Assembly (NCBI GenBank): GCA_029782225.1
Contig: JAKOVF010000005.1
Location: forward strand, 12,949 to 76,948
Length of the DNA stretch: 64,000 bases
DNA from: Chloroflexota bacterium
GTDB taxonomy: Bacteria; Chloroflexota; Anaerolineae; Anaerolineales; Villigracilaceae
Reading direction: 5' to 3'
A program made the translations under genes and the position numbers. Under the pieces are notes generated by a model, which saw nothing but the letters and a program-made list of their open reading frames with translations, had not been told where the DNA came from and searched no databases. Below, piece by piece: positions 1 through 35,254 of the stretch (its first letter is position 1; the number at the start of each line of letters is the position of its first letter).

Positions 1-110
1 AAGATATGAACTTCATCAAAAAGGTTTCCAGGGTTGTAATACCTATCAGTAATCTCTCCTTTTTGGATGAGACTAGACAGTGAATCTGGAATGATAACAA
101 GTAATTTCAT
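1..110 (-). CDS. Partial CDS (N-terminus only, MKLLVIIPDSLSSLIQKGEITDRYYNPGNLFDEVHI...) running off the window edge; function unknown
   Basis: Reverse-complement translation of bases 1-110 gives an open frame with the ATG at 108-110. It is not in the ORF track because it has no stop inside the window. Confidence 0.3.
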   Translation of the reverse strand, partial: MKLLVIIPDSLSSLIQKGEITDRYYNPGNLFDEVHI

Positions 111-117
111 ACGCGCT

Positions 118-852
118 TTAGAGTTTTTGCATTAATACGCAGATCTCAGTTGCAAATGGTTTGAGATAATAGCCCGCCCACATTCTTTGTTTGATACTCA
201 GATCAGCCAGAAAATTTCTTCCGAATAGATTGAATTGATTGAGGCCATAACCGAAATACCCGAGCGGAGTTAATTTAGATTTTTTCCCAAGCTGGTAGAT
301 CTCTCGTGCTGTGTATTCTCTGTAATGCATAATAGCCGACAAAATCGGCTGCTCACCTCGAAGTATTCTGATGATGTTTTCGATTCTCAACCGGTTGGGG
401 GTGCAAATCGCAACTACACCACCCTTCGCACAACTTCGCACACAGGACTTCAAATATTCGGCGGGGCGGTTAAAGTGTTCGAATACTGCAAAACTCACCA
501 CGAGGTCGTATGGCTCTCTGGGAGTAAAAACAAGAAAATCGTGTACGCTTCGCTGAACTTTGAGGTGAGGATATTCGGCATTGGCTTTAAGCACGCTTTG
601 CTCTGAATAATCAATAGCGTCGACACGCTTGACGAAAGGATACTGCACCATCAAAACGTCTTGATAGCCGCATCCACAGCCAACATTTAATACTGTGGCT
701 GGCTGAACCCGGCGAAACAGTTGCTGGATCTCAAATGTTCTAGAATAATCCCAGTCTGAAGATAAGTATGTTCCCCATTCCTCGGTGATCTTCTCATCGA
801 AAAATTGTCTCTGATCTTCAATATATTCTGGATATCGATCTTGAACTGGCAT
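118..852 (-). CDS. Class I SAM-dependent methyltransferase
   Basis: Motif I VLNVGCGCGY is followed by an acidic residue. Its length and local context fit a glycan-modifying methyltransferase. Confidence 0.75.
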   Translation of the reverse strand: MPVQDRYPEYIEDQRQFFDEKITEEWGTYLSSDWDYSRTFEIQQLFRRVQPATVLNVGCGCGYQDVLMVQYPFVKRVDAIDYSEQSVLKANAEYPHLKVQRSVHDFLVFTPREPYDLVVSFAVFEHFNRPAEYLKSCVRSCAKGGVVAICTPNRLRIENIIRILRGEQPILSAIMHYREYTAREIYQLGKKSKLTPLGYFGYGLNQFNLFGRNFLADLSIKQRMWAGYYLKPFATEICVLMQKL

Positions 853-924
853 TTACTCAACTCCTCTTAAATGTGAAACCAACAATATTGACTGAAACCA
901 CCCGGTATTCCCGACCCGGAAGAA

Positions 925-1854
925 TTAGATGGGATAGCCCCAACAAGCCAGATCCCGGTCAAGCCATACCGAAGTTCTATAGTTGCTGACAGCATAAAAA
1001 GATCGGATGAATGCTTCATCAGCTTCACTCAATATCGGTGGACGCTTACGAATTGAGGACAGTTTCCTGAATGTCAAGCCGAGTTTTCGAAGTAGTCCTC
1101 GAAGGGCAGACTGTTCTTCAGGCACCAAACTGTAAGAAGTGGAAAGCGCCTTGTTTTGGTCTGCCTCTGATAGGTCCATGGGAAAGAAGGGTACTTCTAA
1201 AAACCTACATAACCCGTGTAAAACGTTTTCCTCATCACTGGCAATCTCCTCTAGGATCATTACATGGATATTTTCTTTGCCAAAACAGGCTGCATATGAT
1301 TCAAGCAGCCGGTCATAGGCAGCAGCATAGGCTGCCGCCTTTCCCTCGAGCGTGCTCAGAAAATCGACGAAAAAACAGCGCCCAGCCGGGAAGTGTGGAA
1401 GATAATGCAGATACATAGAACGAAACCAATCAAATTGGTTCCTCAAAACAATGAGAATCCGGGCATCAGGTAAAGCATGTTTAATCCTGCGCGCTAGTTC
1501 AGCATGGTCAGGCGAAATCACCGTTCCATCCATACGGCCATTCAATTTAACTGCCCAGTGAGCAGACCATTCTGGATTGATAGAAGTAGAATAATCTTTC
1601 TGAGGTGTCTCCTTAAGAACATATCCCAAGGAAAGGCTCTCATACATGTCAATAAAACATGAGGCTGATTGTTCGTTCTCAAAAAATTTTAGATATCTCT
1701 GTTTTCGAATCTCATCGTCCGATTCGAGTTGAAAAAACCAGGCTCTACGGGTCCAATGAATACTTGGATGCTGAGTGAAATAGCTTCGTAGATAGGTTGA
1801 GCCTGACCTCATATAGCCAACGTAAACGATATTTGGTTTGGTATGGTTATCCAT
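925..1854 (-). CDS. Sulfotransferase family protein
   Basis: A 5'-PSB-like YMRSGSTYL motif near the N-terminus and a 3'-PB-like RNQFDWFRSMY motif are typical of PAPS-dependent sulfotransferases. Confidence 0.65.
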   Translation of the reverse strand: MDNHTKPNIVYVGYMRSGSTYLRSYFTQHPSIHWTRRAWFFQLESDDEIRKQRYLKFFENEQSASCFIDMYESLSLGYVLKETPQKDYSTSINPEWSAHWAVKLNGRMDGTVISPDHAELARRIKHALPDARILIVLRNQFDWFRSMYLHYLPHFPAGRCFFVDFLSTLEGKAAAYAAAYDRLLESYAACFGKENIHVMILEEIASDEENVLHGLCRFLEVPFFPMDLSEADQNKALSTSYSLVPEEQSALRGLLRKLGLTFRKLSSIRKRPPILSEADEAFIRSFYAVSNYRTSVWLDRDLACWGYPI

Positions 1855-1937
1855 AGGTATCCTCTTCGCCTGCCATGCACATTACTTAAATTAACCAAAT
1901 CAGAAGGTAAATCCAGCCACTTATTGATCTGGTCCTG

Positions 1938-2753
1938 CTACAACTTCTCGCAAACAAGAATATGCCGAAAGGCAAACAACTTCAATAACGGCAAATTACT
2001 GATCCACTCATCCAGCAGTTTACCCTTAACTCGCCGGGATAATAATTGTGTCCAGACCGGCAGCAAGAACAGCTTGAGCCATTTGGGACGATCGCCTCCC
2101 CATAATGGGAGTATCTGAAAGGTGCGGTGCTCCACGATTTTCATCCCTGCTTGATGGATCATCCTTTTCATGGCCGGCACGGAAACCGCATAATTTTGGG
2201 CCCATCCCAGTTCTTTATGGTAAGCATTGACTACGATCACATTTAACGAATACAGGTTACCCAGGTCAAGAATACATTTGCCAGTGGGTCTTAAAACCCG
2301 TGCTATTTCGCTGATCACCATGCCAACATTGGGGATTACATACAGTGAGGAAAAGGAATAAGCAAGATCGAAGGAGTTTGACCGAAATGGCATTCTGCAG
2401 GCATCGCTGCAGGCATAGCGCGTGTTTTGCAAATCTTTTGTAATTTTGTCCTTGTTGGCTTTTTGGAGATAAGGCAGGCTAAAATCCACTCCGGTGCATG
2501 TCTGCATTCTGCCGGCAAATCCCATGAGGTGCTGGCCTGTTGCGCAGCACACATCCAGGACATTTGAATGGTCGGCATAAAAGTGAACTAAATCCAAGCG
2601 GATCTTCAACAAGATATCGCTATAGGTCTCTGGAACCGGGGGCGGCAGATGGTTAATGGTGTCGACCGTATAAATTCCTTCTTTTGTGAAAAGGTCCCGC
2701 TGGTCTGACGCTTGTTGAATATCTGTGGTTTTATCTACAGGTTCAAGCTTCAT
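1938..2753 (-). CDS. Class I SAM-dependent methyltransferase
   Basis: Motif I VLDVCCATGQHLMGFA. The reading frame overlaps the downstream gene by 11 bp, consistent with an operon. Confidence 0.7.
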   Translation of the reverse strand: MKLEPVDKTTDIQQASDQRDLFTKEGIYTVDTINHLPPPVPETYSDILLKIRLDLVHFYADHSNVLDVCCATGQHLMGFAGRMQTCTGVDFSLPYLQKANKDKITKDLQNTRYACSDACRMPFRSNSFDLAYSFSSLYVIPNVGMVISEIARVLRPTGKCILDLGNLYSLNVIVVNAYHKELGWAQNYAVSVPAMKRMIHQAGMKIVEHRTFQILPLWGGDRPKWLKLFLLPVWTQLLSRRVKGKLLDEWISNLPLLKLFAFRHILVCEKL

Positions 2754-3918
2754 TGCTTTTCTTTCCCAGTAAACCAGTCAATCCCAGCAGAAGCTTTCTC
2801 ATGAGGCTGATCATCTTCCTGCCCAAGATCACCGTCGACAGGTCACGACTCGCGTTTAGCCAATTTCTGATTATTGTTTTCTTGTCCGGCATCAATTTCG
2901 CCTCCACCGGAGTCAAAACTGCCGGCGATTCAGGTTCCGGCTGCGGCATAATCAGTTCGCCTCTAAACAACCGGTGCAATTCTCCGCCAAACTTGCCTTT
3001 GAAATCGGTCAGTCCTTTATCTTTCCCTTCGGCTGCGTTGGGGAAAGCCTCGCCGGTTTCATACCATGCACACCCATCCGCTTTTGCAGCCAGGACTGCT
3101 TCCCAAAAGAGGAGGTAGTTAACACCCGATTTCAGATGTGCTGTTTCTGAGCAACCCGTGTGATAGAGCTCCGATGAAGAAAAACGCGCATCATTGTGAA
3201 ATGCAACGGGGGATCCGTCCGGAGAAAAACCTACCCAAAGGATATGATGTGAGTCTGGTTGCGCGGCGATGCCTTCGAAATACGATTTAGGGTGCGACTG
3301 GACACCGGTGCGTTGATAGGTTTCAATGTGAACGCGATAATACTCATCGACCATTTCCCTCCAGGAACATCTGCGGGCTGAATATCCGGCGGAGCGTGCC
3401 TGTTTAATTTTTTGCCTTGCATCCTTTGCCATTCCGAACCACAGATCCTCTTCGCTCTGTAGAAGATCAATGATCCGTGTATGCGTTGAAACGTCCGTAA
3501 AACCGACTTCAACGAGGGGATTCACACCCCAGCCGTTCTTCAATGAAGATTGACAAATTGGACTAATAACAACTGTTATTCGCTCTGCACAAAACTGCGC
3601 GGCTATATCCCTGGCGCGTGCCCAACATGCCTCCCATAAGCGCTGGCGAACCGCCCTTGAAGCACCAGCTGCGATCACCGGGCCGCCATGGCCCCAGCCG
3701 CTCGAAGATAATCTTTTTCCGGCTGAAATCCAATGAAGCGGCATGATAGCAACCAGTTTGCCGTTCTCACGGACGGCAAAACTGAGCTGCTGCATATTCC
3801 AAACGAGGGTGACCATCTCAAGCCATTCAGCCAGGCTGAATACCCATCCATCCTCTGAATGGTAGACAATCTCATCCCATTCCCGTGCTTTTATTTGATT
3901 AAATCCAATAAATTCCAT
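2743..3918 (-). CDS. FemAB-like / Acetyltransf_6 (BioF2-like GNAT) family protein. The real start is probably the internal MEFIGF codon at 3918.
   Basis: The ~370-aa overall layout resembles FemAB/GNAT-like acyltransferases common in polysaccharide loci. The internal ATG leaves an 8-bp gap to the upstream asnB-like stop. Confidence 0.45.
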   Translation of the reverse strand: MEFIGFNQIKAREWDEIVYHSEDGWVFSLAEWLEMVTLVWNMQQLSFAVRENGKLVAIMPLHWISAGKRLSSSGWGHGGPVIAAGASRAVRQRLWEACWARARDIAAQFCAERITVVISPICQSSLKNGWGVNPLVEVGFTDVSTHTRIIDLLQSEEDLWFGMAKDARQKIKQARSAGYSARRCSWREMVDEYYRVHIETYQRTGVQSHPKSYFEGIAAQPDSHHILWVGFSPDGSPVAFHNDARFSSSELYHTGCSETAHLKSGVNYLLFWEAVLAAKADGCAWYETGEAFPNAAEGKDKGLTDFKGKFGGELHRLFRGELIMPQPEPESPAVLTPVEAKLMPDKKTIIRNWLNASRDLSTVILGRKMISLMRKLLLGLTGLLGKKSNEA

Positions 3919-3926
3919 GGACGTTA

Positions 3927-5816
3927 TTATCCGCTCTTTATCATTGTCTCTGCTGGAGATGTGTGGCTTAACCACATACCAAGCATAAACCCCAACATCA
4001 TATCCCCAGCTGACGCTCGAAGCTTGACTCCAGCACATAGATCTGCAATAAACTGCTTCCAAGCTGAGCGATAGGACTCTGAATCTATGCCGGCCTGATC
4101 CAAAGCATCATAGGCACGAACAAATGCAGTCCGATAATTTGGATCGTCAACGATATTGTTTTGCCAGCGAAGATTAAAACCCATTCCTTTCTTGCGAGCC
4201 CAGGCAATTTCCTTTCCGACCAGTTTTTCGTAGAAAAGTTTTGGTAGATACTTATTTGTTTTGGGCGAGAAAGGATCTGCCACCTTGTATTGGTGAGGCA
4301 GCCTGGCCGCGAACTCGATCAGACGGTAGTCAAGGTACGGACTGCGGACTTCCACCTGCGCAGCAAGCCCGGAGATATCAGGCAAACGGTAATTGCTGTC
4401 ACTCGTGGAACAAAGCAAGTTCAGATACATCAACCGATCCAGAAAATTATCCACCCCCGCCTCGGTAATATCCTTCATGATCCTGTCAACCATTGAGAGC
4501 ACCGCATTCCCAGTGGGTGTAGCTAATTCCCCGGGAGAGAGACGCGCGCTGAGATTGGAATAAACATAATTTCCCCACATTCCTGCGAGCGAATCTGCCT
4601 GTTTTTTTATTCCAAAATGGCGATGAAGAAACGGCAGACGTTGAAATCGTTCCAAGTCATCCTTGCGGGCTACCTCGTCCCCGATATAACCAGTAAAAAT
4701 TTCATCCGATCCATTGCCGCTTAAAACCACCTTTGCGAGTGGACGTATGGTCTCATAAAGCCGGTGTGAATAGACCAGCGGAAGCTGTACAGACGGCTGG
4801 TCATAAAATGAATAAGTACGCGGCAGGCCGCTGAGCAAGTCCTCATGGTAGTTAAATTGAATATATCGCCAGGTCAAACCCAGCTCACGCGCGACGCGTT
4901 CCGCAATCATTGTCTCAGGGCTGGGATCGTCATCCGTGTGATAGTCGATTGTGTAACAATCCAGAGAGACATTCAATCGTCGAGCACAGAGCGCAGCAAT
5001 TGTCCCGGAATCAACGCCGCCCGAAAAGGTGAGAGCAAGCGGCACGTCGGAACGCAGACGAATGGCAATGGCATCCGTCAACAGAGTTTCGTATTCTTCA
5101 AGCAACTGAGAAAGCGAGCGGCGGCTTTTCCTGCGGAGGTCCATCTGCCAGTAGCGGCCCACTTGCGGGACCGGATTCTCGGGACTGACCCAGGCAAAGA
5201 AAGCCGGTGGAAGCGCCCTCGCTTGCTCATACACGGTCAGCTCGAGAGGAAAGCCTGCGACCAGACGGTACAATTCGATCGCACCGATAGACAGTTTGCC
5301 GGTCCAACCCGGAATAGAGCGAAAGGCATCGAGCGTAGAGGCAAAATAAAAGTCACCGCCAATTTCGCACCAAACCAGCGGCTTCTTGCCAAGCCGGTCG
5401 CGCGCCAGAAACAGTCGCTTTTTCTGCGTATCCCAGATTGCAAAGGCAAACATGCCATTTAGATCCTCGCAGACATGTTCCCCTTTCAACTTGAACCCTT
5501 CCAGAATTGCCTCGGTATCGCTCTGAGTCTCGAACCGGGCACCCATCCGCTCGTAGGCGGTGCGTAATTCTTTGTAGTTATAGATTTCGCCGTTGTAGAT
5601 GATCACATATCGCTTGCTAACATCCCACATCGGCTGGTGACCGGTTGTCAGGTCAATAATGCTCAAGCGGGAATGGAAAAAATGAAGGTTTTTCTCATCG
5701 CTCCATTCATCCTGTTCATCGCGCCCGCGATAAAGGATGCTGGATCTCATGTACCGGGTTGTTGTCTCCGGGATTCGTCCAATATCAGTTGAGATGATGC
5801 CGGCAATTCCGCACAT
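3927..5816 (-). CDS. Asparagine synthase (glutamine-hydrolysing) family amidotransferase. In a glycan locus this is probably a uronic-acid amidating enzyme.
   Basis: An MCGIAGI N-terminal Ntn Cys2 nucleophile fixes the start at 5816. An SGGVDSG PP-loop ATP pyrophosphatase motif lies in the C-terminal half. Confidence 0.85.
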   Translation of the reverse strand: MCGIAGIISTDIGRIPETTTRYMRSSILYRGRDEQDEWSDEKNLHFFHSRLSIIDLTTGHQPMWDVSKRYVIIYNGEIYNYKELRTAYERMGARFETQSDTEAILEGFKLKGEHVCEDLNGMFAFAIWDTQKKRLFLARDRLGKKPLVWCEIGGDFYFASTLDAFRSIPGWTGKLSIGAIELYRLVAGFPLELTVYEQARALPPAFFAWVSPENPVPQVGRYWQMDLRRKSRRSLSQLLEEYETLLTDAIAIRLRSDVPLALTFSGGVDSGTIAALCARRLNVSLDCYTIDYHTDDDPSPETMIAERVARELGLTWRYIQFNYHEDLLSGLPRTYSFYDQPSVQLPLVYSHRLYETIRPLAKVVLSGNGSDEIFTGYIGDEVARKDDLERFQRLPFLHRHFGIKKQADSLAGMWGNYVYSNLSARLSPGELATPTGNAVLSMVDRIMKDITEAGVDNFLDRLMYLNLLCSTSDSNYRLPDISGLAAQVEVRSPYLDYRLIEFAARLPHQYKVADPFSPKTNKYLPKLFYEKLVGKEIAWARKKGMGFNLRWQNNIVDDPNYRTAFVRAYDALDQAGIDSESYRSAWKQFIADLCAGVKLRASAGDMMLGFMLGMWLSHTSPAETMIKSG

Positions 5817-5827
5817 AAGGGCACCTC

Positions 5828-6715
5828 TTAAGCCTTGTTGGCGTCCTCGACCCAAAACCCATCCGGATATCCATACCAGGCCGGGATTCTGCCTTGCATC
5901 GTATCGCGCAAAAAGCGAACATCCGCTTCGGATAAATACTCGTGATACCCACCAACCTGGCCTTTGCGCACATGAAATGCTTCCTGCGTGCTCGCCGTGT
6001 CTCCCGTCGCAAAAATCGGCAACCCGGAGCTGGAGTAGACAAGGGTCCGGGTATGTCGATTATCCATTTCCAGCTTCCGCATATTCTTGAAATCACTGAA
6101 AGCAACGGCTTGACCTATGTAATCCTCACGGATCGGAATCTGAAAAAACTCCAGGAGGCGACAAAACTCTTCGGCGGGTTTAAATCGTAAATCCTCGTAA
6201 CGCATCAGCATTAGCTTTGGGATAGAGAGTCGTCCAGCCTCCCAGAGCTGAAGGAAGGCTACTGCTTTTTCAACGCCCTGAACCGGATTGCGAATGTATT
6301 CAGAAATGTCGCCCTGATAAGGCGGGGTTGCCTGTGTCTTTGCCTGCCAGAATAGAGAAACCAAAACGTCCGGGATATTGCGAACCAGAAGCATGACGTT
6401 CGTATGACGCCAACACGAAACGGTATTCTCCATCGTCAGGTCGGCAGCTGTTTGATAAGTCCATTCCAAATTCCCATGCGTGAACTGAATCAATGGTACG
6501 CGAGGATCGATGTATTCGAACTGGTCAAACAGCGGTAACGGTAATTTCTCATCCCGCCCTGTGAACAATTGGACATACTTGCCCAACATCACACGCAGCC
6601 AGGTTGTGCCAGATTTAGGATAGCCAACCACATAATATTCCTGCAACGCCGGGTGTATATCCTCTCGGGTCTTCCGGCCAAACCACTTTTGGAACTTGGT
6701 CAATACTCTTTTCAT
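5828..6715 (-). CDS. Sulfotransferase domain protein
   Basis: Canonical 5'-PSB motif YPKSGTTWL and 3'-PB-like LLVRNIPDVLVSLFW. The start was chosen at MKRVLTK (6715) to avoid a 62-bp overlap with wzt; this start is uncertain. Confidence 0.75.
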   Translation of the reverse strand: MKRVLTKFQKWFGRKTREDIHPALQEYYVVGYPKSGTTWLRVMLGKYVQLFTGRDEKLPLPLFDQFEYIDPRVPLIQFTHGNLEWTYQTAADLTMENTVSCWRHTNVMLLVRNIPDVLVSLFWQAKTQATPPYQGDISEYIRNPVQGVEKAVAFLQLWEAGRLSIPKLMLMRYEDLRFKPAEEFCRLLEFFQIPIREDYIGQAVAFSDFKNMRKLEMDNRHTRTLVYSSSGLPIFATGDTASTQEAFHVRKGQVGGYHEYLSEADVRFLRDTMQGRIPAWYGYPDGFWVEDANKA

Positions 6716-6737
6716 GCTACTGTTACTCCAAGACGGA

Positions 6738-8054
6738 TCAAGGGCTGAAAACTTGCCACTCCGAACGTTGTGCAAAAGATGTCTCAGACTGTGAAACATT
6801 GCTGCCGTTTAGATAATCGTCAATATCTACATTGATATGAATCGTGTCGCTGATACTATCCAGCCAGCGCTTATCATCTTTGCTTACAACCTGACCGATC
6901 GTGACCATAAGAATATAACTTCCACCCACCAGCAGCAATTCTGGAATCACGCATTCAAGGTAGCCATCTCCTGAAAGCTTTAATTCCGAGCGCGAGTGGT
7001 GTACCCCAACCGTCATGACCTGCAGGCCCGTATAGTTCAGGAAGTTCACGTTGCAAAAAGCAGAAAGATCCTCGTTCAGATGAAATCCAATCCGGATTCG
7101 CAATCCTCTCCCTGTCTTGAACTCAACCGATTCAGTCCCGTCCATATTGTGAGTGGAAATCCAGGTGAGGATCGGTTTGCTTCCGTCCCAGCGCTTGACG
7201 TTCTCCCGCAGGTCAAGATAACTGATGCGAGGACGTCCACCTTCGGCTCGAAGGCGTTCTTCATCAATCTGGTGAATATCCTTCAGGTACCTTTCGGTGG
7301 TGGCATGAGCACTTCCCCAATAAAGGATCCTGCCTCCATCTAAATATAATCCCCGGTCACATAAACGTGCTATGGAAGTAAGCGAATGGCTCACAAACAA
7401 TACTGTTTTCCCGCTTCTGGCAGCGCCCTCCATTTTATCAAGACTCCTTTTTTGGAAAGTCGCATCTCCAACAGCCAGCACTTCATCCAGAATCAGGATC
7501 TCCGGGTCAAAATGGGCGGCCACTGCAAAAGCCAGACGGACGTACATTCCGCTTGAGTAATGTTTGACCGGGGTATCAATGAATTTCTCAACCCCTGAGA
7601 AATCCACGATCTCATCAAACACCCGATCTATTTCGGCGCGTTTCATGCCAAGAATAGCCCCATTCAAGTAAACATTCTCTCGCCCGGTCAACTCCGGATG
7701 AAAACCTGTGCCAACCTCAAGCAGGCTACCCACCCGGCCATAGAGGTCAACTCGTCCACAAGTCGGGGCTGTCACCCTGCTCAAGATCTTAAGCAGGGTG
7801 CTCTTTCCTGAACCATTACGTCCGATGATGCCCAGCACCTCCCCGCGTTTTAGTTCAAAGGAAACATCCTTTAGCGCCCATAGCTCATCTAGTTGATCAG
7901 CGCCGATACGCGCCAGCCGGGGATCAAAAATCCGGCGCACCGCACGCGCAAAGGAGGTGGTTGCTGATTGAATCAGCGTATCAGGCCTCTGCTTGGCCGC
8001 GCCAATGTAATATAGCTTGCTCAGATTTTCCACACGCACCATAACATCATTCAT
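6738..8054 (-). CDS. wzt: Polysaccharide ABC exporter ATP-binding protein, Wzt/TagH-like, with a ~180-aa C-terminal extension
   Basis: Walker A GIIGRNGSGKSTLLK, an ABC signature and a Walker B ILILDE. The NBD is followed by an extra beta-rich C-terminal domain, as in Wzt proteins that bind capped glycan termini. Confidence 0.85.
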   Translation of the reverse strand: MNDVMVRVENLSKLYYIGAAKQRPDTLIQSATTSFARAVRRIFDPRLARIGADQLDELWALKDVSFELKRGEVLGIIGRNGSGKSTLLKILSRVTAPTCGRVDLYGRVGSLLEVGTGFHPELTGRENVYLNGAILGMKRAEIDRVFDEIVDFSGVEKFIDTPVKHYSSGMYVRLAFAVAAHFDPEILILDEVLAVGDATFQKRSLDKMEGAARSGKTVLFVSHSLTSIARLCDRGLYLDGGRILYWGSAHATTERYLKDIHQIDEERLRAEGGRPRISYLDLRENVKRWDGSKPILTWISTHNMDGTESVEFKTGRGLRIRIGFHLNEDLSAFCNVNFLNYTGLQVMTVGVHHSRSELKLSGDGYLECVIPELLLVGGSYILMVTIGQVVSKDDKRWLDSISDTIHINVDIDDYLNGSNVSQSETSFAQRSEWQVFSP

Positions 8055-8056
8055 AT

Positions 8057-8911
8057 TTACACCAGATCAATGAAGGTTTTTTCAACGCGATGGAAATAAA
8101 GCAAGCCTGTTATCAGCAGGCCCAGCACTAGAAGAAGAGAGATACCCATCAGCGGATAAGGCGGAAGCGGCGATCCAAGCAGCGCCCAGCGAAACCCTTG
8201 TACTACGACTGCCATTGGATTAAGCCAGTAAAGTGTGCTCACAATTCCCTGGGGCAACAGCGTAGGTGAATATGCGACAGGGGAAGCATACATCCACATC
8301 GTGGTCAACAAGGAGATTGCCTGTGCGATATCCCGGTATTGAACTGTGAGCGCGGATAGCCATACCCCGGCTGCCAAAGCTGTTAGCAGGGCAAGGAAGA
8401 TAAAAATCGGCAGGGCCACTGCCGACCAACCCGGGAAAATACCGAAACCAAATAGAATGAGAACAAGGAGAGTAAATGCGATGGCAAAGTCCACGAGGGA
8501 AATAACAAGAGCAGAGATGGTCCCAATCAATCTTGGAAAATAGACTTTTGCCGAGAGAGCCGAACCTCCCAGCAGGCTGCTGCTTGCTCCTGTCAGCGCC
8601 CGGGAGAATAATCCCCATGCAGTCAGCCCCGTCAAAGAAAAAACGGCATAAGGTATTCCCTCCGAAGGCAGCTTTGCCAGCCCACCAAAAATGAGAGTAA
8701 AGACCAACATATTGAAGATCGGAGGGATAACCGCCCAGCCCACGCCGATCGCGGTCTGTTTATACCGAACTTTGAGATCGCGCCAGACAAAGTAATAAAG
8801 CAACTCACGATATTCCCGCAGCTCCCGGAAATCGGGGAATGGCAATCCCTGAACTGGTTGAATGACGAACATCGGCTCGGAGGCCTGAGACTGGTAATCC
8901 TTTTGAATCAT
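8057..8911 (-). CDS. wzm: ABC-2 type polysaccharide exporter permease (Wzm-like)
   Basis: Six predicted TM helices and an ABC-2 permease topology. Its stop lies 3 bp from the wzt start. The start was chosen at MIQKDY (8911), which is preceded by AAGGAAAA. Confidence 0.8.
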   Translation of the reverse strand: MIQKDYQSQASEPMFVIQPVQGLPFPDFRELREYRELLYYFVWRDLKVRYKQTAIGVGWAVIPPIFNMLVFTLIFGGLAKLPSEGIPYAVFSLTGLTAWGLFSRALTGASSSLLGGSALSAKVYFPRLIGTISALVISLVDFAIAFTLLVLILFGFGIFPGWSAVALPIFIFLALLTALAAGVWLSALTVQYRDIAQAISLLTTMWMYASPVAYSPTLLPQGIVSTLYWLNPMAVVVQGFRWALLGSPLPPYPLMGISLLLVLGLLITGLLYFHRVEKTFIDLV

Positions 8912-8956
8912 GTTTTCCTTTGGAGAGGAATGAAGCAGAAGAGCAACGAGCATTCA

Positions 8957-8998
8957 GTTTTTGAATTCTCACATGAAAGGCAATCACTGTCAAGGGAT
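8957..8998 (-). promoter_or_regulatory. Conserved promoter/operator element, copy 1. Read on the minus strand it is ATCCCTTGACAG-N-TTCATGTGAGAATTCAAAAACTGAATG: TTGACA, a 17-bp spacer, then TGTGAGAAT.
   Basis: It aligns nearly base-for-base with 16047-16088. The -35 TTGACA and the extended -10-like TGTGAGAAT are 17 bp apart. It sits 46 bp upstream of the wzm start. Confidence 0.55.
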
Positions 8999-9185
8999 TA
9001 GGGTCCATCGAGTCCAAGGATTTCACTTATAATGTCAGTTGAGATCTTATAGTACTTTTGTCAAGTTGCCTGACAGTTCTGTGAGGCGGGTACAGCCACA
9101 ATGAATTTAGAATGCTAATAGATGTGGTTTTATCCATATAATAAATTCAGGGAATTTGTACTACCTCACCGTTTTGGAGGAACCA

Positions 9186-11665
9186 TGAAAACAGGAAATC
9201 ATTTCTTACTTGGCCGTGGCATTTTGGTGCTTGCACTTCTCAGCACGCTGCTCATGACCAACACGCAAAATGTACGTGCAGCCGCGCCATCCAATGACCT
9301 TTTTGATGGGGCAACGAACATCATCATCACCGGAAACTCCTTCACGGATGCGATTCAGGATGTTACCGGTACAGCAACTCCCAAGCCTGGTGATCCCCCC
9401 AATGGCGAGCCAGCCATTAGTTGCAATACGAATTATCCCGGGTTGTCAAGCCTTTGGTATCGCTATGATCCCAGCCAAAATGGCATGCTTAATGTGAGCA
9501 CAGTGGGCAGCAACTACGATACGGTAGTAGCCATCTGGCAGGGCACCACACTGGCCAACCTTGTTGCTGTTTCCTGCAATAATGACTATTATTCCCCCAT
9601 CAAGCAGTCTTTTGCCAGTGCATATGTGGAAGTGGGAAGTGCCTACTACGTTGAGGTCACTGCAGCAGGTGGGATCGGAGGAGCAGCTGCGCTAAGCGCA
9701 AACAAAGCCCAGCCTTTTGCGGTCACTGACGACTTGAGTCTCACTGTCACTTTCGATCCCGGAACCGCCGTGGGAGTGGGGGTCTATGATGACAGCCATG
9801 CAAATTGGACTTGGGGGGACGACGGAGGAGGATCGGGGGCCTGGACGCACGGTACGGGTATAACAGGTCCCTTCGCCAATACCCATACATACAGCAGCAC
9901 GGCTGGCGATACAACCAAATTCAACTTCGTCGGCGATCAATTCACCTTGTATTATACAAAAGCCAGCAATGGCGGCCACATGGAGGTTTGGATTGATAAT
10001 ATCAAAATTCAATTTGGAAACCAATTCTATCTGGACGAGAATTCTCCCACGACTCAATACCAGCAAACGTGGGCTAGTCCCACCTTGGATCCAGGCGGTC
10101 ACCAGGTATTGCTAAAAAATCTGACCGGTACCATTTATGTAGATGCGATCAAAGTAGCCTATCGAATTGCCCCGCTGGGGGATATCAGCACGGACTATAA
10201 TCCGACCTATCAATGGAATGAAGTCGCTGGCGCGACTTGGTATTATCTATGGGTAAATGGACCATCCGGCCCTGTCATCCAGAAGTGGTATCAGGCCTCG
10301 GCCATTTGCGGAGGAGGCCTTTGTTCCGTTAAGCCCAGCACCATTTTAGGCGGCGGGAATCATACCTGGTGGGTTCAGACTTGGAATAACGTAGGAACCG
10401 GTCCATGGAGTTCTGCAAAGTATTTCACTACAGCGATTCCGACCATTCCGGATCAAGCCACCTTATACTCGCCCATCGGAGATATCGGCACGAACTTCAC
10501 CCCGACTTTTGAATGGGAACAAGTCCCAGGCGCCACATGGTTTTATCTATGGATAAATGGCCCCACCGGAGTCGTGCTGAAGCAATGGTATCCAGTGTAT
10601 TCGGCCTGCAATGGTGGTACCTGTTCTGTTACGCCCAGCACTCCTCTGGCGGGAGGGGATTACACGTGGTGGATTCAGCCCTGGAACGCCGCAGGTACCG
10701 GACGTTGGAGCGCACCTATGACCTTCCATGCTGCCAGCTCAGCAGCGCCCGGTCAGGCTACTCTAACTGCGCCGACCGGAGATATCGGGCCGAACTATAA
10801 TCCCACCTATCAGTGGAATGAAGTGCTTGGGGCAACTTGGTATCGCTTATGGATTAATGGAGCAAGCGGACTAGTGCTCAACAAATGGTACCAGGCCTAT
10901 TCCATCTGCAACGCTGGAGTCTGCTCTGTCACATCGGCCGCCACTCTGGGCGGTGGAAATTATTCATGGGCGGTTCAAACCTGGAATGACGCCGGTACAG
11001 GTCCCTGGAGCATTACCGTGAATTTCATCACAGCCCCGCCGCTTCCCCCTGATAAAGCCATCCTTTATACGCCAGAGGGCGACATTGGCACGGAATATAA
11101 CCCCACGTATCAGTGGCAGGATTTCCCGGGTGCTACCTGGTACTATCTGTGGGTGAACGGATCCTCTGGGGCTGAAATCAAGCAATGGTATCAGGCCTCT
11201 TCCATCTGCACTGCAGGCACATGTTCTGTCAGGCCCAGCACCAGTTTGAGTGGTGGAAACCACACATGGTGGGTTCAAACCTGGAACTCGACAGGCCAGG
11301 GCCCATGGAGTGATCCTAAGATGTTCACAACCCCAGCCCTCACGGTTCCCGGTCAGGCCACTCTAACTGCGCCCACCGGAGATATCGGGGCAGAATACAA
11401 TCCCACCTACCAATGGAATGAAGTTTCAGGCGCGACCTGGTATTATCTATGGGTGAAGGGTCCCAGTGGACCGGTGATCCAGAAATGGTATCAAGCCATT
11501 TCTGTTTGCAGTGCCGGTGTCTGCTCTGTCACGCCCAGCACTACATTGGCTGGAGGAAGCTATCGCTGGTGGATCCAGGCATGGAACAGCGCAGGAAAAG
11601 GACTCTGGAGCGATCCTATGGATTTCACCGCCACCACGGCAACACCACCTCCTGGTGTTCCATAG
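9186..11665 (+). CDS. Secreted multi-domain protein: signal peptide, PPC (pre-peptidase C-terminal)-like domain, CBM6/35-like beta-sandwich, then 5x ~100-aa Cys-containing tandem repeats
   Basis: MKTGNHFLLGRGILVLALLSTLLMT signal peptide with GGAGGA RBS. LWYRYD...YYVEV matches the PPC pattern. The repeats share the consensus PTYQWNEVxGATWYYLWVNGxSGxVIxKWYQAxxICxxGxCSVxPSTxLxGGxHTWWVQTWNxxGTGPWS. Confidence 0.7.
10154..11653 (+). repeat. Five in-frame tandem repeats of exactly 300 bp. Unit starts are near 10171, 10471, 10771, 11071 and 11371, with about 70-85% nucleotide identity.
   Basis: Direct inspection shows ...GGAGATATCGG...AATCCCACCTATCA(A/G)TGGAATGAAGT...TGGTATTATCTATGGGT recurring with a 300-bp period and no indels. 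Confidence 0.85.
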
Positions 11666-11804: not shown

Positions 11805-11843
11805 AACTGCCAGAGTTTCTATCGCTCTGGCAGTTATATTTGG
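11805..11843 (+). terminator. Rho-independent terminator-like hairpin (AACTGCCAGAG / CTCTGGCAGTT stem followed by ATATTT)
   Basis: Perfect 11-bp stem with a 9-nt loop and a T-rich tail downstream of the repeat-protein stop. Confidence 0.5.
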
Positions 11844-11863
11844 AGTGCAATCGGCTAAAACCT

Positions 11864-12835
11864 ATGAAACTGGACAAAATCAAATCAAACCCAACACAAT
11901 TCCTGATGTACGGTGTACTTGCACTGTTCGTGATCGTGATTGTGATCTGGATGCTGATCCAATCATTTTCAGGATCAAAACCCAATGCGGGGCTACCAAC
12001 TGAGACACAGGCCATAGCATCCACCTTTCAGGCTGGTACTGAGGTGCCTGGAGTCATTAACCAGAGAGGCACAGCGACATCTACCCCCGCTGGATCTTCT
12101 GGCAGCACCACCTCAGCAGCACAAACCTCCACGGCAGTTCCTGGTACTTTGTCAGCTAACCCAACCTCGAAGTCACCTGCCGTCGGGAGTCCCCCGCCTG
12201 GCGTGACTCCTGCTGCATCGGGTCAGGGAACGCCAACAGTCTCGGGTCCACAATCAAACAGCACCCCGCCCTCGGGCTCGGGCGGACAGACTGGGCCAAC
12301 ACAAAGTGGCGGGCCGCCGGCCAATGGAACTCCACCCCCGAATTCGCAAACCACCGCAACGCAAAGCGGGCCGCCTTCCAACGGAAACCCGCCTCCAACC
12401 TTGCAGGCCACTCCCACAGAAAAGGGACCTCCATCCGATGTTAATCCCCCCCCCACGGCAACACCAGTCAGCGGCGGCACCTATGATGATACGAACGCTG
12501 CCTGGCAGTACAGCGGCGGCTGGGCATATATAACCAAAGACAGTGGCCCATACAATAAGACGATTCACTCAACCGGCACAACCGGGAGCTATGCTGAGGT
12601 TAGCTTCAGGGGCACTGGCTTCACTTTCATCTATACCATAGGCCCCAATCAGGGACAGATCGATGTTTTTGTGGATGGAGCTAAGGTGGATACAATCGAT
12701 GCCCAGGGCAGTACAGTGGAGTGGCAATCTACATGGTCCAGCGGTTCACTGACCAATGCTGCACATACTGTTCGCTTCGCTTATGCCGAGGGCGGAACCA
12801 ATATTGACGTTGATGCGATAACCATCCTGCCATAA
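11864..12835 (+). CDS. Membrane-anchored surface protein: N-terminal TM helix, ~170-aa Pro/Thr/Ser/Gly-rich linker, C-terminal CBM6/35-like domain paralogous to the one in 9186..11665
   Basis: Hydrophobic VLALFVIVIVIWMLI segment followed by a low-complexity PT/SG tract. The C-terminal YDDTNAAWQYSGGW...TFIYT...VDAITIL aligns with aa ~215-340 of the upstream protein. The start at 11864 was chosen after the terminator hairpin; the ORF track gives 11840. Confidence 0.6.
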   Translation: MKLDKIKSNPTQFLMYGVLALFVIVIVIWMLIQSFSGSKPNAGLPTETQAIASTFQAGTEVPGVINQRGTATSTPAGSSGSTTSAAQTSTAVPGTLSANPTSKSPAVGSPPPGVTPAASGQGTPTVSGPQSNSTPPSGSGGQTGPTQSGGPPANGTPPPNSQTTATQSGPPSNGNPPPTLQATPTEKGPPSDVNPPPTATPVSGGTYDDTNAAWQYSGGWAYITKDSGPYNKTIHSTGTTGSYAEVSFRGTGFTFIYTIGPNQGQIDVFVDGAKVDTIDAQGSTVEWQSTWSSGSLTNAAHTVRFAYAEGGTNIDVDAITILP

Positions 12836-12905: not shown

Positions 12906-14003
12906 TCAGGACAGGAAGTCGCGTATAGCATTCACAACTTCATCCTGCTGGGTGCCGCTCAGCTCCGGGTAAAGCGGTAACGCAAGAGTTTCGCGGCTGG
13001 CCTGCTCCGCAAAGGGGAATTGGCCTTCTTTGTACCCGAATTTCCTGCAGGGCACAGATAAATGCGGCGGCAGTGGATAATATACTTCCGAGGCAATGCC
13101 TTTTTGTTTCAGGAAGGCCTGCAGCTCATCCCGCCGGTCGGATCGAATTACGTACAGATGATAAACGTGACGGCCCCACTCACATTCCATTGGCACAGTG
13201 ACGCGCAAACTGGCAAGTTGTTCGCTGTAACGCTCAGCAATCTCGCGCCGCTTTTCATTCCAGGCATCCACGTGAGGAAATTTCGCCTGCAGGATCGCAG
13301 CCTGCAGCGCGTCGAGGCGGCTGTTATATCCCACTTCCTCTGAATAGTATTTCTTCTTCCAGCCATGGGTTCTCAGCATTCGCATCCGCTCAGCCAGCGC
13401 GGAATCGTTCGTCACGACCATGCCGCCATCACCAAACGCGCCCAGGTTCTTGGTAGGGAAAAAGCTCAGGCACCCAATATCGCCTATCGAACCTGTTTTC
13501 CTGCCTTTATACTCGGCGCCAAAACCCTGGGCATTATCTTCGATCACTTTCAATCCGTGTGCCCGTGCCAGTTCCATCACAGGATCCATATCTGCTGGAT
13601 GCCCGTAAAGGTGGACGGGAATGATCGCTTTCGTCCCTGGCGTAATGCGAGTCTCGATTTCTGCCACATCAATTTCATAAGTTGATGGGTCAACATCCAC
13701 GAACACCGGTGTTGCGCCCACAGACATGACGGTTCCTGCCGTGGCAAAAAATGTATAAGCCGGGATAATGACTTCATCCCCTGCACCGATATTCAAGGCG
13801 CGCAATGCCAGAACCAGAGCATCTGTTCCGGAGGCGAGACCAATCGCGTGGTCCACGCCGAGATACGACGCGATACTTTCCTCAAACCGGGTCACTGCTG
13901 GCCCAAGGATGAAGTGACCCGATTCCAACGTCGCGTTGACCGCGGCGTCAATTTCGTTCTTGATGGAATGATACTGCGCAACCAGATCAACCAATGGGAT
14001 CAT
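12906..14003 (-). CDS. wbpE: DegT/DnrJ/EryC1 family PLP-dependent sugar aminotransferase, WbpE-like (UDP-2-acetamido-2-deoxy-3-oxo-glucuronate aminotransferase)
   Basis: Sequence pattern throughout ([28 protein letters not shown]) matches DegT-family enzymes and closely resembles WbpE. The start was chosen at MIPLVDL, giving a 4-bp overlap with the upstream gene. Confidence 0.85.
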
Positions 14004-14593
14004 TCTCCGCTTCTTTCCGGACCGACCAGCTGGTCTCGTTTCCAATAAGAATCACCACAACTGTTGCAGACAGCCCGCTCGTGCCCATCGTGAGCTGTGA
14101 ATTCAAGCTGTTCACCGCACTGACATATCCACCCGCGTAATCGAGCAGGTGAACCGTAGACCAGAGCATAGTCCGGCACATCGCGCGTGACGACAGAGCC
14201 CGCGCCCACAAAACTGTAACATCCCAGGGTCACACCACACACAATCGTCGCATTCGCTCCTATGGATGCACCTCTGCGTACCAACGTGGTTTTATATTCA
14301 TCCTTGCGGCTGACATGGCTGCGCGGGTTGATCACATTGGTAAAAACCATGGACGGACCGAGGAACACATCATCCTCCACGATCACGCCGGTATAAAGCG
14401 AAACATTGTTCTGGATCTTTACATTGTTGCCAATCGTCACATCCGGGGAAACAAGCACATTCTGACCGATGTTGCATCGCTCGCCAATACGAGCCTTTGG
14501 CATCACATGGCAAAAATGCCAGATCTTTGTGCCTGCGCCTATTTCTGCGCCTTCATCTACATAGCTGGATTCGTGAACAAAATAGTCTGACAT
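14000..14593 (-). CDS. wbpD: Left-handed beta-helix (hexapeptide) sugar N-acetyltransferase, WbpD-like, with an extra C-terminal Cys4 zinc-ribbon-like tail
   Basis: Hexapeptide repeats and long stretches ([41 protein letters not shown]) resemble WbpD-type UDP-2-acetamido-3-amino-2,3-dideoxy-glucuronate N-acetyltransferases. The C-terminus reads CQCGEQ...CNSCGD. Confidence 0.85.
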
Positions 14594-14603
14594 AAACGCA
14601 TAC

Positions 14604-15545: not shown

Positions 15546-15566
15546 TTGATTACGGCCTTTCAGTGA

Positions 15567-16031: not shown

Positions 16032-16046
16032 AGGTTTGAGAATTCA

Positions 16047-16088
16047 ATTTTTGAATTCTGACATGGAAATTAAGCCCTGTCAAGGGAT
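16047..16088 (-). promoter_or_regulatory. Conserved promoter/operator element, copy 2 (minus strand: ATCCCTTGACAGGGCTTAATTTCCATGTCAGAATTCAAAAATTGAATTC). It contains the perfect palindrome GAATTCAA-TTT-TTGAATTC.
   Basis: Same layout as copy 1: TTGACA, a 17-bp spacer, TGTCAGAAT, then TTCAAAAANTGAAT. It lies 16 bp upstream of the regulator start codon. Confidence 0.55.
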
Positions 16089-16203
16089 ACCTTTCAGCGC
16101 TTGGATAATTCCACTGCCGCAACCGGGTTAAGGTGCAGGGTTGAAATTGATGGTGCACCTTGAAGTTCAACTAGATCCCCTACAGTTCAAGGAAGTTGCG
16201 GCA

Positions 16204-18403: not shown

Positions 18404-18411
18404 GCAGGGAT

Positions 18412-35247: not shown

Positions 35248-35254
35248 GCCTTTA

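Follow-up and report, generated by a model that had tools for sequence, protein, structure and literature searches.

Introduction

The closest described systems are capped glycans exported by Wzm/Wzt ABC transporters, as in Aquifex aeolicus, E. coli O9a/K. pneumoniae O3 and R. terrigena/K. pneumoniae O12. Each pairs an ABC-2 permease with a Wzt protein that joins a nucleotide-binding domain (NBD) to a carbohydrate-binding domain (CBD), and each completes the glycan in the cytoplasm before export. A coiled-coil molecular ruler on the terminator is a hallmark of capped-glycan systems (PMC11231755). In the capsule of Cobetia marina, which is ABC-exported (KpsMT), sulfate is a decoration of the repeat unit, Rha2S (PMC11766843). 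The wbsalmo cluster of Aeromonas salmonicida encodes a 216-aa protein with a sulfotransferase domain whose role is unknown, and no sulfate was found in the O-antigen (PMC4483657).

An operon that combines a Wzm/Wzt transporter with two sulfotransferases led to the original prediction of a capped, chain-length-controlled, ABC-dependent glycan in which sulfate could be the terminating or decorating group. We find that the operon is not unique, but represents a cassette for glycan synthesis that several bacterial phyla carry.

Results

We analysed a 64-kb stretch of DNA (the window), in which the minus strand from 1 to 8911 forms a single operon, as judged by the spacing of its genes, which never exceeds 83 bp and at its closest is an overlap of 11 bp. 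Its first genes, side by side, encode the ABC-2 permease Wzm (8057–8911, 284 aa by gene call, in an ORF that reaches 8953; PF01061 ABC2_membrane, E 8e-17) and the nucleotide-binding subunit Wzt (6738–8054, 438 aa). Wzt comprises an NBD (7275–8054, residues 1 to about 260; ABC_tran, PF00005, E 1e-22) and a C-terminal CBD (6738–7223 with the stop codon, residues about 278–438). There follow, in order, the PAPS-type sulfotransferase ST1 (5828–6715, 295 aa by gene call; Sulfotransfer_1, E 8e-21), an AsnB-type glutamine amidotransferase (3927–5816, 629 aa, beginning MCGIAG; asn_synth_AEB, 329 bits), a FemAB/Acetyltransf_6-like acyl or aminoacyl transferase (2743–3918, 391 aa), the class-I SAM methyltransferase MTa (1938–2753), a second PAPS-type sulfotransferase, ST2 (925–1854, 309 aa; Sulfotransfer_3, E 4e-20), a second class-I SAM methyltransferase, MTb (118–852), and a conserved GT4 glycosyltransferase. 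The GT4 gene starts at 110 and runs past the window edge, leaving the first 36 of its 414 codons inside (1–110); in full it corresponds to L001 10743–11987, with stp2-like and TuaC-like matches below cut-off. All the genes that the original prediction had placed in one operon, Wzt, two sulfotransferases and two methyltransferases, lie on this strand. Its limits of 925–8911 were too narrow, since the operon continues through MTb into the GT4 gene, and its title had omitted the amidotransferase and the FemAB-like protein. Immediately upstream of wzm, a promoter-like site (8965–8993, minus strand; TTGACA, 17-nt spacer, TG, GAGAAT) is the best match within 1–9300 (10/12), but such sites are no more numerous in the region than expected from shuffling, and the site is a positional hint only.

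Candidate precursor genes also lie on the minus strand. A block at 12906–17280 encodes a DegT aminotransferase, a hexapeptide acetyltransferase, a GFO/IDH/MocA oxidoreductase, a MarR-type regulator and a UDP-GlcNAc 2-epimerase, together WbpE/D/B/I-like, and its counterparts stand immediately upstream of wzm in three related loci (L004, L005 and L006). Next to it is a second GT4 glycosyltransferase (17264–18436). The candidate WbpA, a UDP-sugar 6-dehydrogenase (36321–37694), is 19 kb away in the window; a WbpA-like gene adjoins wzm in L004, L012 and L013. All five WbpA/B/E/D/I families of the UDP-ManNAc3NAcA pathway are present, as matches at the Pfam level only.

The Wzt C-terminal extension is about 160–180 aa long. 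With the Pfam Wzt_C profile the window Wzt scored 22.8 bits, short of the 30.4-bit cut-off, so that identification of the CBD rests on a fold search, on alignment to PDB sequences and on the precomputed Wzt_C hits of homologues. An AF2 model of the domain is all-beta (pLDDT 90.2), and its best 17 matches in the PDB were all Wzt CBDs (8dky, 2r5o, 5hno, 6o14; TM 0.56–0.71, E 7e-7 to 8e-6), with the next match at E 3e-3. The full-length model matched A. aeolicus Wzt (8dku) over 440 aligned columns (Foldseek E 2e-37), and the sequence alignment to the same full-length protein (phmmer E 1e-62) spans the CBD. These results uphold the prediction of an ABC-transporter-dependent glycan system, and the structural check that had been proposed for the extension recovered the jelly-roll fold of the Wzt CBDs; as modelled, the domain belongs with the CBDs that recognise a cap at the non-reducing end. 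Six of its residues (R321, H353, Y380, M383, D399 and W433) are invariant in loci with or without ST1, a pattern that in the alignment is consistent with a shared recognition core.

Chain-length control, by comparison, found no support. The proposed search for a WbdD-like protein revealed no WbdD/WbbB-type coiled-coil terminator and no kinase or Kdo-transferase domain among the cassette proteins, all of which are of single-domain size. In a crude heuristic scan of the window and nine related loci, helical stretches free of Pro and Gly did not exceed 48 aa, and the coiled-coil ruler hallmark is thus missing.

Both sulfotransferases have intact PAPS-binding motifs. ST1 scored 74.9 bits against PF00685 (curated threshold 22; motif GYPKSGTTW) and ST2 73.4 bits against PF13469 (curated threshold 27; motif GYMRSGSTY). 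The 37 ST1 homologues keep the 5'-PSB motif PKxGxTW, the 3'-PB motif, the catalytic histidine H80 and RKGxxGG, so that P33, K34, G36, T38, W39, H80, R112, D116, S120, R250, K251 and G252 are invariant or nearly so; the ST2 translation shows YMRSGST and RNQFDWFRS. Profile matches relate ST1 to the cytosolic SULTs, Teg12/14 and StaL, and ST2 to 3rnl (E 3e-11). The translations, read by eye without a predictor, display no obvious signal peptide or membrane segment, and both enzymes are predicted to be cytoplasmic.

The cassette is shared with Chloroflexota-type metagenome contigs, Sulfurisoma, Paramagnetospirillum and a Terrimicrobiaceae MAG, and recurs in L002–L008, L012–L017, L020–L022 and L025. 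Its genes encode the FemAB-like protein, the core methyltransferase MTa, GT4a, MTc, a deacetylase, an unknown 201-aa protein, MTd and AsnB paralogues. In L004 the FemAB-like protein is fused to a DegT aminotransferase, and the size of an ORF in L015 (711 aa) suggests a similar fusion. Wherever ST1 accompanies an ABC transporter it lies directly 3' of wzt, in every such locus examined (the window, L004, L005, L006, L026, L012, L013, L015 and L016), from Chloroflexota-type contigs, Alpha- and Betaproteobacteria and Verrucomicrobiota. An orthologue of the operon's AsnB is restricted to ST1-positive loci, and ST2 orthologues (L004, L012, L016 and L017) were found only in these cassettes.

ST1 is nevertheless an accessory gene, as is ST2. 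Six Wzm/Wzt-CBD cassettes have neither ST1 nor any other sulfotransferase (L002/L003, P0016, L020, L021, L022 and L025), and four carry ST1 with a Wzx flippase and no ABC transporter (L007, L008, L010 and L017). The ST1 of L007, a Wzx-type Anaerolineales locus, is 55% identical to that of the window, compared with 35–38% for proteobacterial ABC-type ST1s. Because ST1 is accessory and a coiled-coil terminator is absent, sulfate decoration is favoured and a universal sulfate cap is unsupported. The original prediction had allowed either role; the decorating one is the better supported, and the terminating one is disfavoured by the sulfotransferase-free CBD loci and the Wzx-type cassettes. Most likely, the sulfotransferases decorate the sugar chain rather than supply its stop signal, and the signal that all versions of the cassette share would more probably be a methyl group added by one of the core methyltransferases.

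The swapping of the cassette between Wzx flippase and Wzm/Wzt also raises an alternative that we regard as unlikely, namely that the product is a short, defined, highly modified oligosaccharide (for S-layer or protein glycosylation, or a glycolipid) that is flipped whole, with the sulfotransferases tailoring fixed positions. The cassette has just one or two conserved glycosyltransferases against 8–10 tailoring enzymes, neither a polymerase nor Wzz nor a coiled-coil ruler turned up inside it, and a GT-C/GT2 block lies close by in the window. However, the characterised Wzt proteins with a CBD act on polymers (PMC9445017, PMC11231755), and a single polymerising glycosyltransferase suffices for a homopolymer, as is typical of ABC-dependent pathways. 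A weak Wzz match in L004 lies beyond the cassette, at the far upstream end of the locus.

Comparison of the CBDs bears on a second alternative, in which ST1 would place sulfate on the non-reducing terminal residue as a chain-terminating cap that the Wzt CBD reads for export. In a neighbour-joining (NJ) tree of CBDs, all nine ST1-positive members of the Chloroflexota-type clade fall in one clade and all six ST1-negative ones outside it, whereas the two groups are intermingled in the NBD tree. CBD identity falls from 62–66% to 45–46% in ST1-negative loci, while the flanking Wzm, NBD and FemAB remain equally similar; given that the CBD alone diverges with ST1 status, ST1 appears to change what the CBD must read. 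Membership of P0019 in the ST1-positive CBD clade forecast an ST1 gene after its wzt, and one was then found there. Position 355 is basic in seven of the nine ST1-positive CBDs and in no ST1-negative one. This link within one clade keeps the cap idea alive, since a sulfate cap predicts the same pattern, and the fixed place of ST1 after wzt also speaks for it; such a cap would add a new termination chemistry to methyl, phospho-methyl and Kdo. Yet the same co-variation would be expected if all repeats including the terminal one were sulfated. Furthermore, ST1 orthologues occur in Wzx cassettes that have no CBD, cassettes with a CBD manage without a sulfotransferase, and the coiled-coil terminator is missing. 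Proteobacterial ST1-positive CBDs carry the ST1-negative state at 6 of 12 discriminating positions, no residue in the CBD alignment is specific to all ST1-positive members, and ST1-positive CBDs are on average more acidic (mean net charge −7.1 against −4.2). We consider a sulfate cap improbable.

That the sulfotransferases act on a small molecule, lipid or protein unrelated to the glycan and are merely co-located seems very remote: the closest solved ST1 relatives are small-molecule SULTs and the glycopeptide-antibiotic enzymes Teg12/14 and StaL, and in A. salmonicida a sulfotransferase-domain ORF follows wzt although no sulfate was found in the O-antigen (PMC4483657), but ST1 is closely packed in the operon, separated by 22 bp from wzt and by 11 bp from asnB, keeps its position in the same cassette across at least four phyla and two export routes, and is matched by an ST2 likewise confined to these cassettes.

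Discussion

On balance, we lean towards optional decoration, in which a conserved, horizontally shared cassette assembles on a lipid carrier an acidic, heavily tailored amino-sugar glycan and sulfate is added in some versions. The glycan would be built at the cytoplasmic face of the membrane, where the WbpA/B/E/D/I-like neighbours would provide a 2,3-diamino-uronic-acid nucleotide sugar of the UDP-ManNAc3NAcA type and the conserved GT4 enzyme or enzymes would assemble the chain. The AsnB paralogues may then convert carboxyl groups to amides or make amidines, the FemAB-like enzyme may N-acylate or aminoacylate an amino group, and the several SAM methyltransferases may methylate the glycan. ST1 and ST2 would use PAPS to sulfate residues while the glycan is still cytoplasmic. 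Wzm/Wzt would export the completed lipid-linked glycan, binding of the non-reducing end by the Wzt CBD serving as an export checkpoint. As the CBD subtype shifts with ST1 in one clade, the sulfate is probably on or near the terminal residues; it would not be a universal stop or export signal.

Several observations count against optional decoration. The 64-kb window lacks PAPS-synthesis genes, and the ORFs scanned included no recognisable initiating phosphoglycosyltransferase. The sugar is identified only by Pfam-level Wbp matches, and the solved structures closest to ST1 are of enzymes with small-molecule rather than glycan substrates.

Among known systems, the XrtA/PEP-CTERM exopolysaccharide loci share FemAB-family proteins, AsnB-type amidotransferases, GT4 enzymes and a polysaccharide deacetylase with the cassette, and TIGR03019, TIGR03108 and TIGR03088 rank first or near the top of the named NCBIfam matches for its FemAB, amidotransferase and glycosyltransferase proteins. 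We rejected such a system, since all three scores fall far below curated cut-offs (61.8 against 260, 285 against 817 and 75.6 against 409) and no exosortase or PEP-CTERM protein was seen among the ORFs scanned; export here is instead by Wzm/Wzt. The P. aeruginosa B-band O-antigen, whose precursor pathway is WbpA/B/E/D/I with the WbpG/WbpS amidotransferases, has the UDP-sugar dehydrogenase, GFO/IDH/MocA, DegT, hexapeptide acetyltransferase, 2-epimerase and AsnB-type families in common with this locus at the Pfam level, but is Wzx/Wzy-dependent and unsulfated. The ABC-dependent wbsalmo cluster of A. salmonicida (PMC4483657), likened by description alone, also has a 438-aa Wzt with a sulfotransferase-domain ORF immediately after it; it differs in its WbbB-type terminator, and the rest of the cluster is unrelated.

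Cobetia marina (PMC11766843) and the cyanobacterial synechan cluster xss (PMC8205485) resemble the cassette in placing PAPS-type tailoring sulfotransferases inside a polysaccharide cluster, and the Cobetia capsule is an earlier example of an ABC-exported bacterial polysaccharide whose repeat unit is decorated with sulfate. Cobetia, however, uses a KpsMT group-III capsule transporter without a CBD and encodes PAPS synthesis in its cluster, whereas the window has a CBD-bearing Wzt and no PAPS genes nearby; synechan is made by a Wzx/Wzy route rather than Wzm/Wzt. The predicted diamino-uronic-acid chemistry of the cassette differs from both.

The capped Wzm/Wzt systems remain the source of the best sequence and fold matches for the window Wzt. 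The cassette departs from these prototypes in having no WbdD/WbbB-type coiled-coil terminator, kinase or Kdo transferase and a CBD just 14–19% identical to the solved ones, and it adds sulfotransferases, AsnB paralogues and a FemAB-like enzyme that they do not have. Since the host is probably Chloroflexota-type, an LPS O-antigen is an unlikely product here. As in A. aeolicus (PMC9445017), a methyl cap could be supplied here by the methyltransferases of the cassette.

Operon organization and the two sulfotransferases

The first genes of the window form a tight operon on the minus strand of positions 1–8953, with intergenic spacing that ranges from an 11-bp overlap to 83 bp. Read from its upstream end, it begins with wzm (8057–8911; Pfam ABC2_membrane) and wzt (6738–8054; 438 aa), the permease and ATPase genes of an ABC exporter, followed by genes for the sulfotransferase ST1 (5828–6715; Pfam Sulfotransfer_1, E 8e-21), an AsnB-type glutamine amidotransferase starting MCGIAG (3927–5816), a FemAB/Acetyltransf_6-like protein (2743–3918), the methyltransferase MTa (1938–2753), a second sulfotransferase, ST2 (925–1854; Pfam Sulfotransfer_3, E 4e-20), the methyltransferase MTb (118–852) and a GT4 glycosyltransferase, of which the first 36 codons fall in the window. 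The remainder of the GT4 gene is seen in L001, a 26-kb Logan contig that is identical in sequence to the window and extends beyond its edge. The best promoter-like site (8993–8965) lies immediately upstream of wzm, in a region where such sites are no more numerous than expected by chance. This gene content confirms the original prediction that sulfotransferases and methyltransferases share an operon with an extended Wzt, with GYPKSGTTW present in ST1 and GYMRSGST in ST2. The genes it named stand as part of the operon; its coordinates missed part of the operon, and its title left out the AsnB and FemAB-like genes.

An alignment of 37 ST1 homologues keeps the 5'-phosphosulfate loop (P33, K34, G36, T38 and W39), an invariant His80, R112/D116/S120 and the C-terminal RKGxxGG motif; in ST2, the 3'-phosphate motif RxxxDxxxS reads RNQFDWFRS in the translation. 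Profile matches of ST1 include cytosolic SULTs, plant flavonol and steroid sulfotransferases and the glycopeptide-antibiotic enzymes Teg12/14 and StaL (E 4e-25 to 1e-17), and among solved structures the best relative of ST2 is 3rnl, an uncharacterised protein. Close sulfotransferase orthologues are few (39 and 22 matches in word-indexed searches, the former for ST1). The idea that the ST1 family is tiny was ruled out by an exhaustive profile search, which returned 1,700 50%-identity cluster representatives at E ≤ 1e-30: the wider ST1-like family is large. Neither enzyme has an obvious signal peptide or membrane segment, as judged from the translations, which would put the action of both in the cytoplasm, the compartment in which PAPS is available and ABC-dependent glycans are completed. 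No PAPS-synthesis genes were found within the 64-kb window.

The Wzt C-terminal extension is a carbohydrate-binding domain

Pfam Wzt_C scores 22.8 bits on the window Wzt, below its cut-off of 30.4. Despite this sub-threshold score, we assign the extension as a carbohydrate-binding domain (CBD) because three lines of evidence agree. A phmmer search of PDB sequences gave full-length Aquifex aeolicus Wzt as its top match (8dku/7k2t, E 1e-62), in an alignment that spans the CBD up to query residue 401. The AF2 model of the whole protein (pLDDT 87.6) aligned with 8dku across 440 columns. Finally, the model of residues 278–438 alone (pLDDT 90.2) is all-beta, and its best 17 matches in the PDB are all Wzt CBDs (TM 0.56–0.71, E 7e-7 to 8e-6; next match at E 3e-3), among them A. 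aeolicus 8dky/6o14, E. coli O9a 2r5o and the Kdo-cap-binding O12 domain 5hno/5hnp. The carbohydrate-binding module fold proposed for this extension is thus present, by a fold check set beforehand.

Candidate precursor genes and proposed sugar type

Upstream of the operon, the minus strand of 12906–18436 encodes a DegT aminotransferase, a hexapeptide acetyltransferase, a GFO/IDH/MocA oxidoreductase, a MarR-type regulator, a UDP-GlcNAc 2-epimerase and a GT4 glycosyltransferase, and a UDP-sugar dehydrogenase is encoded at 36321–37694. We take these upstream families and the dehydrogenase, matched at Pfam level only, to be those of the WbpA/B/E/D/I route to UDP-2,3-diacetamido-mannuronic acid. Genes of this candidate route directly adjoin wzm in the related loci L004–L006. 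The FemAB-like protein of L004 is fused to a DegT/DnrJ aminotransferase (14165–16570; 801 aa, with a Pfam DegT match), and L015 has an oversized 711-aa ORF at its FemAB-like gene (5532–7664), the extra part of which is without annotation, hinting at a similar fusion. Such fusion suggests that the FemAB-like enzyme acylates the sugar amino group installed by the DegT aminotransferase.

Two secreted-looking proteins are encoded on the plus strand of the window (9122–11665 and 11840–12835) between wzm and the WbpE-like gene, which are adjacent in L005 and L006. The 847-aa protein has approximately five protein-level repeats of ~95 aa (YNPTYQW..GATWYYLWVNG..WWVQTWN..GPWS) and matches no Pfam family; no tandem repeats were found at the DNA level in this neighbouring gene. 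In the 331-aa protein, a long linker rich in Pro, Thr, Ser and Gly accompanies a weak CE2_N-like domain at the C-terminus. Both could be surface proteins and, possibly, glycosylation substrates.

A recurrent cassette across phyla

Judged by gene content, the operon is one copy of a widespread cassette. The recurring set comprises the FemAB-like protein, MTa, a GT4 (GT4a), the methyltransferases MTc and MTd, a polysaccharide deacetylase, a 201-aa protein of no known function and one to three AsnB paralogues. Copies were found through close Wzt and ST1 homologues and by a scan of GTDB genomes. The genome-contig scan was seeded with a 19-sequence ST1 alignment, the single ST1 protein having given no match; a metagenome-contig scan with a CBD alignment gave four short loci, two of them usable and both without ST1. 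The cassette occurs in Chloroflexota-type metagenome contigs (L002–L006, L020–L022, L025 and L026), two Anaerolineales MAGs (L007/L011 and L017), Sulfurisoma sediminicola BSN1 (L012), a Terrimicrobiaceae MAG (L013), a deltaproteobacterial MAG (L014), Paramagnetospirillum kuznetsovii LBB-42 (L015), an uncultured proteobacterium (L016) and L008, a diderm by its Tol-Pal genes.

Sulfotransferase and exporter type among cassette versions

Six versions of the cassette have a CBD-bearing Wzm/Wzt exporter and no sulfotransferase in view (L002/L003, the contig of P0016, L020, L021, L022 and L025). Conversely, in four versions with ST1 (L007, L008, L010 and L017) Wzm/Wzt is replaced by a Wzx/Polysacc_synt flippase; the ST1 of Wzx-type L007 is 55% identical to that of the window, compared with 35–38% for proteobacterial ABC-type ST1s. 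This Wzx/ABC interchange, together with the small number of glycosyltransferases relative to tailoring enzymes, would suit a product that is a short defined oligosaccharide and not a polymer, an unlikely reading.

Sulfate had been proposed as the terminating or the decorating group of the glycan. As terminator, a sulfated (possibly amidated) terminal residue made by the ST1–AsnB pair would be the cap itself, the epitope that the CBD must bind before export. Both sets of variants argue against this role, the first by having the CBD but no sulfotransferase, the second by having ST1 but no Wzt. So does the search for a chain terminator: the WbdD-like coiled-coil protein named as a check in the original prediction was not found, the cassette proteins showing no WbdD- or WbbB-like terminator and no kinase or Kdo-transferase domain and being all of single-domain size, and a crude scan of the window and nine related loci giving no helical Pro/Gly-free stretch longer than 48 aa. 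In favour of a sulfated cap, ST1 lies immediately 3' of wzt in all nine ABC-type ST1-positive loci examined. The gene directly after wzt in ST1-negative versions is FemAB in five of six; in the P0016 contig, an insertion element (HTH_32 plus rve_3 transposase) sits where ST1 or FemAB is found elsewhere, and may mark a site of recombination or loss.

The CBD tracks ST1 among close relatives

Further support for a sulfated cap comes from the CBD. In a neighbour-joining tree of the CBD from close relatives, without bootstrap, all ST1-positive loci fall in one clade and all ST1-negative loci outside it, while the corresponding tree of the nucleotide-binding domain (NBD), likewise without bootstrap, interleaves the two. 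The Wzt homologue P0019 was placed in the ST1-positive CBD clade before its gene context was known, and ST1 was predicted; the prediction was borne out, wzt on its contig being followed by sequence for an ST1 N-terminus (...YYIVGYPKSGNTWLQLMLGKY...). The divergence of ST1-negative loci is also specific to the CBD, which in L002 and L020 is 46% and 45% identical to the window, compared with 66% and 62% in ST1-positive L004 and L005. The same pairs give 64/60% versus 68/64% for Wzm, 74/69% versus 77/72% for the NBD and 60/61% versus 61/61% for FemAB. Because divergence is confined to the CBD and the genes on either side are equally conserved with and without ST1, simple block linkage or co-inheritance is excluded as the origin of the co-variation.

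Other properties of the CBD count against the cap. At six of the 12 positions that separate ST1-positive from ST1-negative CBDs, the proteobacterial ST1-positive CBDs show the ST1-negative state; ST1 thus does not in general require the derived CBD type. No residue sets all ST1-positive CBDs apart from the others, and their mean charge is more acidic than that of ST1-negative CBDs, the wrong direction for sulfate binding; a sulfate-binding signature in the CBD was accordingly rejected. Two of the 12 discriminating positions (335 and 385) lie at or beside positions equivalent to the cap pocket of A. aeolicus, a number close to the chance expectation in a mapping based on a low-confidence HMMER alignment. 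An orthologue of the ST1-adjacent AsnB occurs only in ST1-positive loci, making AsnB an equally good candidate for what the CBD tracks. Adaptation of the CBD is expected, too, if every repeat, terminal ones included, is sulfated; in A. aeolicus, the CBD and NBD jointly contact several terminal residues (PMC9445017). On balance, we consider it improbable that sulfate is the cap.

The best-supported reading, which we regard as moderately probable, is that the operon produces a lipid-linked glycan of diamino-uronic-acid type. The glycan would be assembled on lipid in the cytoplasm, tailored by amidation, N-acylation and methylation, sulfated by ST1 and ST2 in the window version and, once finished, exported by a CBD-gated Wzm/Wzt. 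Sulfate would then be an optional decoration, near enough to the chain end to affect the CBD, and a methyl group from a core methyltransferase, as in A. aeolicus, is the likelier export signal shared by all versions. That the sulfotransferases act on a substrate unrelated to the glycan is very doubtful. Should sulfate prove to be a decoration and nothing more, the locus would be an ordinary, if elaborate, polysaccharide locus; a sulfated cap would mean a new chemistry of chain termination and export licensing, with CBD subtypes that co-evolved with sulfotransferase gain or loss.

Other loci in the window and its relatives

The minus strand of 18412–28982, a region of strong AT skew (+0.14 to +0.23), encodes proteins of 665, 653 and 564 aa without Pfam match beside an LPG_synthase_TM protein, a GT2, a PMT_2 (GT-C) protein and a GDP-mannose 4,6-dehydratase; together they resemble a module for extracytoplasmic glycosylation that depends on polyprenol-sugars, adjoining the ABC locus. 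A second glycan module (32681–36241, minus strand) has a GT4, a Wzx-type Polysacc_synt flippase (33883–35190) and an NAD-dependent epimerase/dehydratase, and the window therefore has a Wzx route as well as a Wzm/Wzt route. Unrelated to the glycan operon is a second ABC-2 transporter (44135–46951, plus strand), consisting of a DrrA-like ATPase with a DrrA1-3_C domain and two ABC2_membrane permeases. A cluster of MoxR-type AAA_3 ATPase, DUF58/VWA, DUF4350 and DUF4129 genes is found at 53743–58326 (minus strand).

Among the compared loci, L007, from an Anaerolineales MAG, has an FGE-sulfatase (formylglycine-generating-enzyme) gene (4203–5075) ~5 kb upstream of its ST1-bearing Wzx-type cassette. 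In L009 (9743–18471), a cluster of alternating sulfotransferase-like genes and four GT4 genes begins with a distant ST1 homologue (33% identity); three genes match Pfam Sulfotransfer_1, _2 and _3, and a 243-aa gene without Pfam match resembles the Sulfotransfer_2 gene by BLAST. L009 has no transporter in view. It is a candidate for the synthesis of a densely sulfated glycan.

Relation to known systems

CBD-bearing Wzt systems are well described (PMC9445017, PMC11231755, PMC3482155), and the known caps that license ABC-dependent export are methyl, phospho-methyl and Kdo groups (PMC9445017, PMC11231755). Neither the cassette nor a terminating role for sulfate was found described in the literature searched, which did not include the main census of terminators and carbohydrate-binding modules (Mann, Kimber and Whitfield 2019). 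The cassette is conserved across several phyla, pairs a CBD-bearing Wzt with a following sulfotransferase and has natural variants that lack the sulfotransferase or use Wzx, a set that makes directly testable whether the CBD reads a sulfated chain end; its presence in two cultured hosts, S. sediminicola BSN1 and P. kuznetsovii LBB-42, makes polymer chemistry feasible. It points to the existence, beyond cyanobacteria and marine Gammaproteobacteria, of an amino-uronic-acid glycan, so far uncharacterised, that is sulfated, methylated and amidated; this bears on where the sulfated extracellular polymers of sediments, microbial mats and sludge come from.

Polysaccharide clusters in which sulfotransferases are known as decorators include those of the Cobetia marina capsule, for which the exporter is a KpsMT ABC transporter (PMC11766843), and of synechan, a cyanobacterial polysaccharide that depends on Wzx/Wzy (PMC8205485). 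An ORF with a sulfotransferase domain comes right after wzt in Aeromonas salmonicida, with no function assigned and no sulfate in the O-antigen (PMC4483657). The closest named NCBIfam relatives of the cassette proteins are the FemAB, amidotransferase and GT4 models of XrtA/PEP-CTERM loci, all scoring far under their cut-offs. Compared with these systems, the pathway logic of the operon is ordinary; what is new lies in a Wzt CBD and a sulfotransferase kept together as a conserved pair, in a CBD that co-varies with ST1 within one clade and in a cassette chemistry that is uncharacterised.
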